The notes under the pieces: model-generated
The model's database searches: none
What the model was told of the DNA's origin: nothing
What the model saw: only the letters and a program-made list of their open reading frames with translations
Made by a program: the position numbers and the translations under genes
Assembly (NCBI RefSeq): GCF_003334315.1
Contig: NZ_QOWR01000045.1
DNA from: Escherichia coli
GTDB taxonomy: Bacteria > Pseudomonadota > Gammaproteobacteria > Enterobacterales > Enterobacteriaceae
Length of the DNA stretch: 41,110 nt
Strand: one strand, 5' to 3'
In this document: one piece after another, positions 31,883 to 33,489 of the stretch
Numbering within the stretch: the first letter of the stretch is position 1
Layout of the letters: every line of letters begins with the position of its first letter

Positions 31883-33489
31883 ATGAAAGCAATTGACAAT
31901 CAGATTAGAAACATCTCTTCAAGCCATCAAGATAAGCATTTAGATAAAGTTAACAGTCATCAACACCATGGCAAGGTTGATAAAACACATCGTGCAAAGA
32001 TAGTTGAATTTGATAAACTGGATAATGATTCGCAAATAGATAACGATTTTGGCCTGCATATCATCTATTTCCTGCAACATGGTCACTGGAAGGTAAATGA
32101 TCGTAGTCACCAGATGGAGAAAGTATGGTTTTATAATAGTGAACCTTCTATAGATATTCAAGAATATAATAGATTCGCCGACAATACTACTGATACGTTT
32201 ATCTTTACAATTATACCAGACAATAACCATGTGTTAAAATTATCGTCTCCCATTACCGTTACTGTTGAGTGTAAGGGCGGTTATTATTTTATTAATTCCT
32301 CTGGAGATAAATCAGATATAATTTATAAAGTTGATGGGCTTTCTATCATAGCGAGAAATTTCTTTACTCTTCTTAGTGGTAATTTCAAACCTGACTGGCG
32401 TTGGGATGTCTCTAAAGAGACGTTTACTAAGGAAAAGTTTGATAGCTATGTTAAATCTGTGTTTTCAAAAATAGACTTCTATAAACAGTGTGGTGTGATT
32501 AACCCACAGAATGCCAACACGGCTTATTTTGGCGATACAGATGGAAGAGTAGGCGCTGTACTTTATGCATTGCTCGTTTCAGGGCATATAGGCATCAGGG
32601 AAAAGGGTTGGAGTTTATTATGTGAATTATTAAAACACGAAGAGATGGCTTCATCTGCATACAAACATAAAAATAATAAAGTGCTCTACGATTTATTAAA
32701 TACGAGAGACATGATCTTGAATGAGTTGCATCAACATGTTTTTTTAAAGGACGATGCGATAACCCCTTGTATCTTCCTTGGGGATCATACAGGCGATAGA
32801 TTTAGTACTATTTTTGGTGATAAATATATCCTTACTTTGCTAAATTCTATGCGAAATATGGAGGGTAATAAAGATAGCCGTATTAATAAAAATGTCGTCG
32901 TTCTGGCTGGAAATCATGAAATCAATTTTAATGGTAACTATACTGCACGACTAGCAAATCATAAACTCTCTGCCGGTGATACGTATAACTTAATTAAAAC
33001 GCTCGATGTTTGTAATTATGACTCAGAAAGGCAAGTTTTAACCAGTCATCACGGAATAATAAGAGATGAAGAAAAAAATGTTATTGTCTCGGTGCTTTGC
33101 AGGTTCCATTTAATCAGATGAAAAATCCTACTGATCCTGAGGAATTAGCCAATATTTTTAATAAAAAACATAAAGAACACATGGATGATCCTCTATTCCA
33201 TCTAATCCGAAGCAATACTTTGAAACCCACACCTGTATATGCTAATTATTTTGATAACACTACTGATTTCAGACCAGCACGTGAACGTATCTTCATATGT
33301 GGGGAGACACTCAAAGGTGAAGACCCCAGCAAATACATTAGACAAAAATATGGGCATCATGGGCCCGGGGTAGATCATAATCAACAATTTGATAATGGTA
33401 TTATGGGGCTAAATTCCCTGAAGGAAGCACGTGATAAAAATAATAAAATAATTTATTCCTCAGGGCTTAGTTGTTTTCAACCACATTAA
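31883..33489 (+). pseudogene. yhiL: yhiL: DUF4049-family paralog of YhiJ, split by a frameshift at about 33096
   Basis: Track ORFs 31847..33121 and 33097..33489 are out of frame but collinear with YhiJ: FGDTDGRVGAV, FLGDHTGDRFS and LAGNHE in the first, NPTDPEELANIFNKKH in the second. A T3 run at about 33096-33098 is the likely indel site. Start assigned to the ATG at 31883 with an AGG RBS. Confidence 0.65.

Follow-up and report, generated by a model that had tools for sequence, protein, structure and literature searches.

At simple-sequence contingency loci and in slippage frameshifts, a gene is turned off when a mononucleotide run in its coding sequence gains or loses one base; the Escherichia coli gene yhiL likewise carries such a change. 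Programmed -1 frameshift sites consist of an X_XXY_YYZ heptamer plus a stimulator, as in dnaX and IS elements. The closest described case is the yhiL pseudogene of E. coli K-12, which is the same gene as the one analyzed here, in the same place between yhiM and yhiJ, and with the same indel leaving a run of seven A's (A7; strain MC4100). In the old K-12 annotation the gene was divided into yhiK and yhiL. In strain B the run has eight A's (A8) and yhiL is one uninterrupted ORF, whereas the locus studied here has A7. Among the papers searched for the yhiL frameshift itself, none discusses it. In E. coli the indel rate climbs exponentially with homopolymer length (PMC8510543), and A7 and U7 runs are under-represented in its genes (PMC4066793).

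The window (the whole stretch of DNA that was analyzed, 41,110 nt of E. coli contig NZ_QOWR01000045.1) contains the E. coli neighborhood yhiN-yhiM-yhiL-yhiJ-yhiY-yhiI-rbbA. The yhiL pseudogene extends over 31883..33489 (+ strand) and matches CDSs of A7 alleles which PGAP labels "YhiJ/YhiL family protein, frameshifted", including those of MC4100, VTB97420v, and Z1323PEC0011. It is made up of two overlapping ORFs, one in frame 2 (31883/31847-33121) and the other in frame 1 (33097-33489). The start codon at 31883 is the one that PGAP assigns in relatives; in the ORF list the frame begins upstream, at a TTG at 31847. The 5' reading frame (31883..33121, + strand) keeps the native sequence for residues 1-398; it continues with 14 residues out of frame (NVIVSVLCRFHLIR) and ends early at a TGA. 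The 3' part (33079..33489, + strand), which holds the last ~136 residues, is readable in the -1 frame only (CYCLGALQVPFNQMKNPTDPEEL... to the native stop).

Downstream lies the paralog yhiJ (33751..35373, + strand), a single intact ORF of 540 aa which is named yhiJ in relatives. The 5' half of yhiL is 36% identical to YhiJ over 282 residues (E = 8e-58), up to ...DEEK, and the 3' half matches the YhiJ C-terminal region with 30% identity (E = 3e-13). Intact YhiL and YhiJ share 34% identity across 396 residues. The initial annotation of this DNA had described the paralogs as one intact and one broken copy, and this description holds.

The window sequence alone cannot fix the lesion site, because a one-base insertion at any position within 33067-33120 restores the frame and gives a single long ORF. 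The site was located by comparison with other alleles. In E. coli B the yhiL CDS is intact and encodes 535 aa (WP_000643701.1), and the window is 99.8% identical to it at the DNA level, with two SNPs and one indel. This sole indel falls within the poly-A tract at 33072..33078 (+ strand), where the window reads GATGAAG-AAAAAAA-TG with 7 A's and intact alleles have 8; the A-run as the only indel holds across 26 sampled alleles too. The earlier claim of a single-base change rather than a large deletion is therefore correct.

With the frame repaired, the 3' part is identical to the strain B C-terminus. The whole repaired protein (one A added, 535 aa) differs from that of strain B only by L20S, and no further lesion is present. 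Since the repaired gene has no other damage, the inactivation is recent when measured by sequence decay, in agreement with what had been proposed from the window. Intact yhiL CDSs of 529-536 aa are found in strain B, N5D43, O157, SX48, CRE1540, D7, PK8568, EN1077, and Combat13F7. Among the alleles of other E. coli that were compared many are thus intact, so the frameshift is not common to all of them. yhiL of the window shows two of the features of a frameshifted pseudogene, namely uninterrupted close homologs and an indel, not a multiple of three, between two homologous frames.

The run was then counted in a collection of 5426 complete E. coli genomes, of which 4194 have yhiL; many of the 99.8%-identical matches are one base longer than the window's gene. 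Counts were made with 85-88-nt queries, in which one difference lowers the identity below 99%, and two partial records that always scored 100% were subtracted. The exact A7 context is present in ~1008 genomes (~26% of the complete genomes carrying yhiL) and the exact A8 context in ~1745 (~44%). A6 is found in 4 genomes and A9 in none of the 5426. In the remaining ~1180 genomes the run is interrupted, reading AAAATAAA (O157), AAAATGAA, or AAAATGCA. In BA22372 an A8 run is accompanied by an extra T. In SCU-308 and PSJ-12, A6 comes with several further one-base indels in yhiL, and in SCU-308 yhiJ has them as well. This suggests homopolymer errors in these public assemblies and calls for caution when rare tract lengths are counted.

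These allele data bear on several other readings of the frameshift. The initial annotation placed it in a T-run within 33085-33110 and proposed a fourth T as the repair. The frameshift is real, as two frames match YhiJ, but its site is the A-run, ~20 nt upstream and outside that interval. Loss of a T from TTTT within GTGCTTTGCAGG (33092-33103) would explain why a T inserted there yields one long ORF, yet an insertion anywhere in 33067-33120 works equally well. The run itself (33096..33098, + strand) is TTT in every sampled allele, intact or broken, and a query combining A7 with a fourth T had an exact match in 0 of 5426 complete genomes. Intact YhiL reads ...HHGIIRDEEKKCYCLGALQVPFNQM... and not ...VIVSVLLQVPFNQ..., and it aligns to YhiJ (...HHGITFDDQRKRYIIGPITVSIDEM...) without a gap across the junction, so that comparison with the paralog itself places the frame switch upstream of CYCLG. 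The alignment favors ...EEKKCYCLGALQV..., for which the frame has to change before CYCLG. A T deletion is almost certainly not the cause. A sequencing or assembly error, with the strain truly A8, is a second alternative. Homopolymers are error-prone, the SCU-308 and PSJ-12 assemblies are clearly affected, and a one-base deletion in yhiM is private to the window. Against this, A7 in its exact context is common to ~1008 independent assemblies, among them the K-12 lineage and the 15 top 21-kb matches of the window (the 21112-nt spans of these matches are explained by the separate one-base difference in yhiM). Because the nearest relatives and ~1000 other assemblies share A7, the run is not a mis-assembly, as had been suggested, and an error here is highly improbable.

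A further alternative is a contingency locus, with rapid phase variation of the run between an ON state (A8) and an OFF state (A7). As in such loci, a mononucleotide tract lies within the ORF and its length (A7/A8) sets the frame. Both lengths are common, and A7 occurs on at least four flanking haplotype combinations, each with an A8 counterpart. On the other side, the K-12-specific SNP 33482T is found in ~349 genomes, all sampled ones being laboratory K-12 derivatives of a heavily propagated and resequenced lineage, and none of them has A8. A6 and A9 are essentially absent. Run length follows haplotype and clone, with A7 and A8 tracking lineage as two stable states, and in a mosaic gene such as this one the spread is explicable by recombination. 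Lesions that are not reversible (stops, IS elements) also occur among the alleles. Phase variation is very unlikely on this evidence, and the earlier suggestion that the gene is switchable finds no support in the K-12 lineage. Only a slight chance is given to the related idea that A8 is a recurrent slippage hotspot switching yhiL off and occasionally on, or that A7 is partly expressed via slippage. The A7 allele could also be a leaky pseudogene, in which a -1 ribosomal frameshift on A_AAA_AAU or slippage of RNA polymerase usefully restores the wild-type protein. The heptamer is formally present in the zero frame as X_XXY_YYZ, and either a -1 shift at the run or an extra A added by RNA polymerase would give ...EEKKCYC..., the same as in the intact allele. 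Slippage is known to occur at A-runs (PMC4066793, PMC5009743), and the 3' part of yhiL is still undamaged, although a recent mutation would equally lead one to expect this. The 82 nt past the run fold at -11.6 kcal/mol, no better than shuffled sequences (z = +0.79), and no downstream stimulatory structure was found there. The shift site lacks conservation; homologs, which have A8 or an interrupted run, stay in frame and do not have the two-frame layout. One source gives a shortlist of 18 heptamers with >0.10% frameshifting without a stimulator that are also under-represented in genes, and A_AAA_AAU is missing from it (PMC4066793). Useful leakiness is therefore an improbable explanation. A one-base A8→A7 deletion at 33072-33078 is the best explanation as a whole and is held with high confidence.

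The A8 run that preceded this deletion is itself probably a derived feature. The junction peptide was compared in 120 YhiL homolog cluster representatives, all from E. coli or Shigella; 77 have EENEC, 30 have EENKC, and only 9 have EEKKC. EEKKC corresponds to the A8 state, and all 9 representatives are close to the K-12/B allele. Judged from these sequences, the interrupted run looks like the ancestral state. As EEKKC is rare and confined to alleles near those of K-12 and B, the uninterrupted A8 appears to be derived, via the substitutions AAT GAA→AAT AAA→AAA AAA.

The following course of events would account for the allele. In one line of descent among yhiL alleles, point substitutions would have changed AAT GAA or AAT AAA (Asn-Glu or Asn-Lys) to AAA AAA, and this codon pair gave an unbroken stretch of eight A's. 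Loss of one A from A8, presumably of the strand-slippage type during replication, would then have produced A7. In the A7 gene the frame shifts after Lys398 and ends 14 codons on, so that the last quarter of YhiL is missing. The truncated protein of 412 aa has probably lost its function. The A7 allele is stably inherited and widespread, and it is one of several independent routes of yhiL loss.

Whether this deletion happened more than once was approached through the sequences flanking the run. A7 is found with at least four flank types: that of K-12 and the window, that of 120899/UTAK-2, that of MY1-8/EC0880B (with an 18-bp insertion at 32322), and that of E29/JCKP02 (with an 18-bp deletion at 33317). 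For each of the four a related A8 allele exists. At least 60 genomes, from many different serotypes and hosts, have A7 on a divergent right flank, so this combination is not an artefact. Across E. coli, yhiL is mosaic, with 88-100% identity, block-wise SNP patterns, and the two 18-bp in-frame indels (32322, 33317). Several allele classes have the same sequence around the run, from ~32716 to 33191, and a single A7 could thus have been carried between them by recombination. In a four-gamete test within the K-12-like class, the combination of 33482T and A8 was not found. With the nearest SNP, 33032 (40 bp from the run), the fourth gamete was found in 2 genomes only; one of these, Combat13F7, has the strain B haplotype with SNP 33032 alone. 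From these haplotypes, A7 may have arisen once and spread by recombination or may have arisen several times.

Loss of yhiL also happened by other routes. A stop at codon 42 is shared over several backgrounds (MG48, JNE132847, 120899, UTAK-2, and JCKP02, of which the last three also have A7), and ABWA45 has a stop at codon 362. yhiL is found with IS2 in Ec-042 and with IS4 in SW070917, and 1232 of the 5426 complete genomes lack the gene wholly. The range of independent lesions suggests that selection on yhiL is weak and that the gene is apparently dispensable. In extracted-segment coordinates, IS2 or IS4 sequence lies in or just past the yhiL 3' end at 2102-2669 in Ec-042-T20-ESBL, 2178-2261 in ABWA45, and 1770-3087 in SW070917. 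At the Ec-042 IS2 junction a 513-aa chimeric CDS is formed.

Pfam analysis of intact strain B YhiL detected DUF4049 (PF13258) at residues 209-532 (E = 1.6e-197) and DUF6860 (PF21661) at residues 40-164 (E = 1.4e-68). The A7 product, native to residue 398 and ending at 412, lacks ~134 of the 324 DUF4049 residues, the C-terminal third. When inspected by eye, the strings YFGDTDG, LGD(H/Q)TGDRFS, and LAGNHE (at residues 280-339 of YhiJ and at the corresponding place in YhiL) resemble a metallophosphoesterase signature. Searches of YhiL against curated NCBIfam, PADLOC defence-system models, and PDB sequences gave no match. All that YhiJ yielded in the NCBIfam and PADLOC scans was a weak match, below threshold, to Wip, a Legionella Dot/Icm effector family (E = 0.0023; 17 bits vs a cut-off of 300). 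DUF4049 could possibly have the fold of the calcineurin-like metallophosphoesterase superfamily, whose motifs are GDxDG/DxH, GDxxDR, and GNHE.

Together, yhiL and yhiJ form an AT-rich island (~31500-35500) with a GC content of 0.32-0.38 vs 0.50-0.59 in the flanks, which is consistent with horizontal acquisition. Surveys of K-12 assign H-NS binding to the yhiL/yhiM and yhiJ/yhiL intergenic regions and place promoter islands within yhiL and in the yhiL/yhiM region (PMC3946193, PMC3661553).

The neighboring yhiM (minus strand, ~30449-31500), a GABA-export/acid-resistance gene, lacks one C in the window at 30973/30974 (ACAG-GTAAT vs ACAGCGTAAT in every relative examined). The site is outside any homopolymer, and the loss splits yhiM into ORFs 30449-30985 and 30952-31599. 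This deletion was found in 0 of 4222 genomes carrying that segment and is either a strain-private frameshift or a sequencing error. In the chicken isolate VTB97420v, the yhiL of which is 100% identical to that of the window, pcoS and pcoE (copper resistance) lie upstream of yhiM (segment 1-941) in place of yhiN. The end of the window (~40828-41110) corresponds in its closest relative (segment 20829-21112) to a region overlapping yhhI, an ISEc1-family transposase pseudogene with an internal stop.

What is added here is the exact site of the lesion, its population frequencies, and the observation that the slippery run appears to be itself derived. yhiL is a tidy case of a gene made fragile by a homopolymer which substitutions probably built, with parallel decay of an acquired H-NS-bound gene. 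The significance reaches little beyond annotation, and no new question is raised.

yhiL differs from contingency loci in that there is no evidence of frequent two-way switching, with 0 reversions among ~349 K-12-lineage genomes. Its A_AAA_AAU heptamer formally resembles those of programmed -1 sites, and the full protein would be regained by a -1 shift; it differs from them in having no downstream structure, in the heptamer being off the shortlist, and in its relatives being in frame. The window is best matched by isolates from animals and humans, Z1323PEC0011 among them. Compared with the yhiL of K-12, that of the window differs at three SNPs, and because of these the window is not K-12. The yhiL of the window is the common K-12-type pseudogene allele, which is already annotated as frameshifted and hence known.
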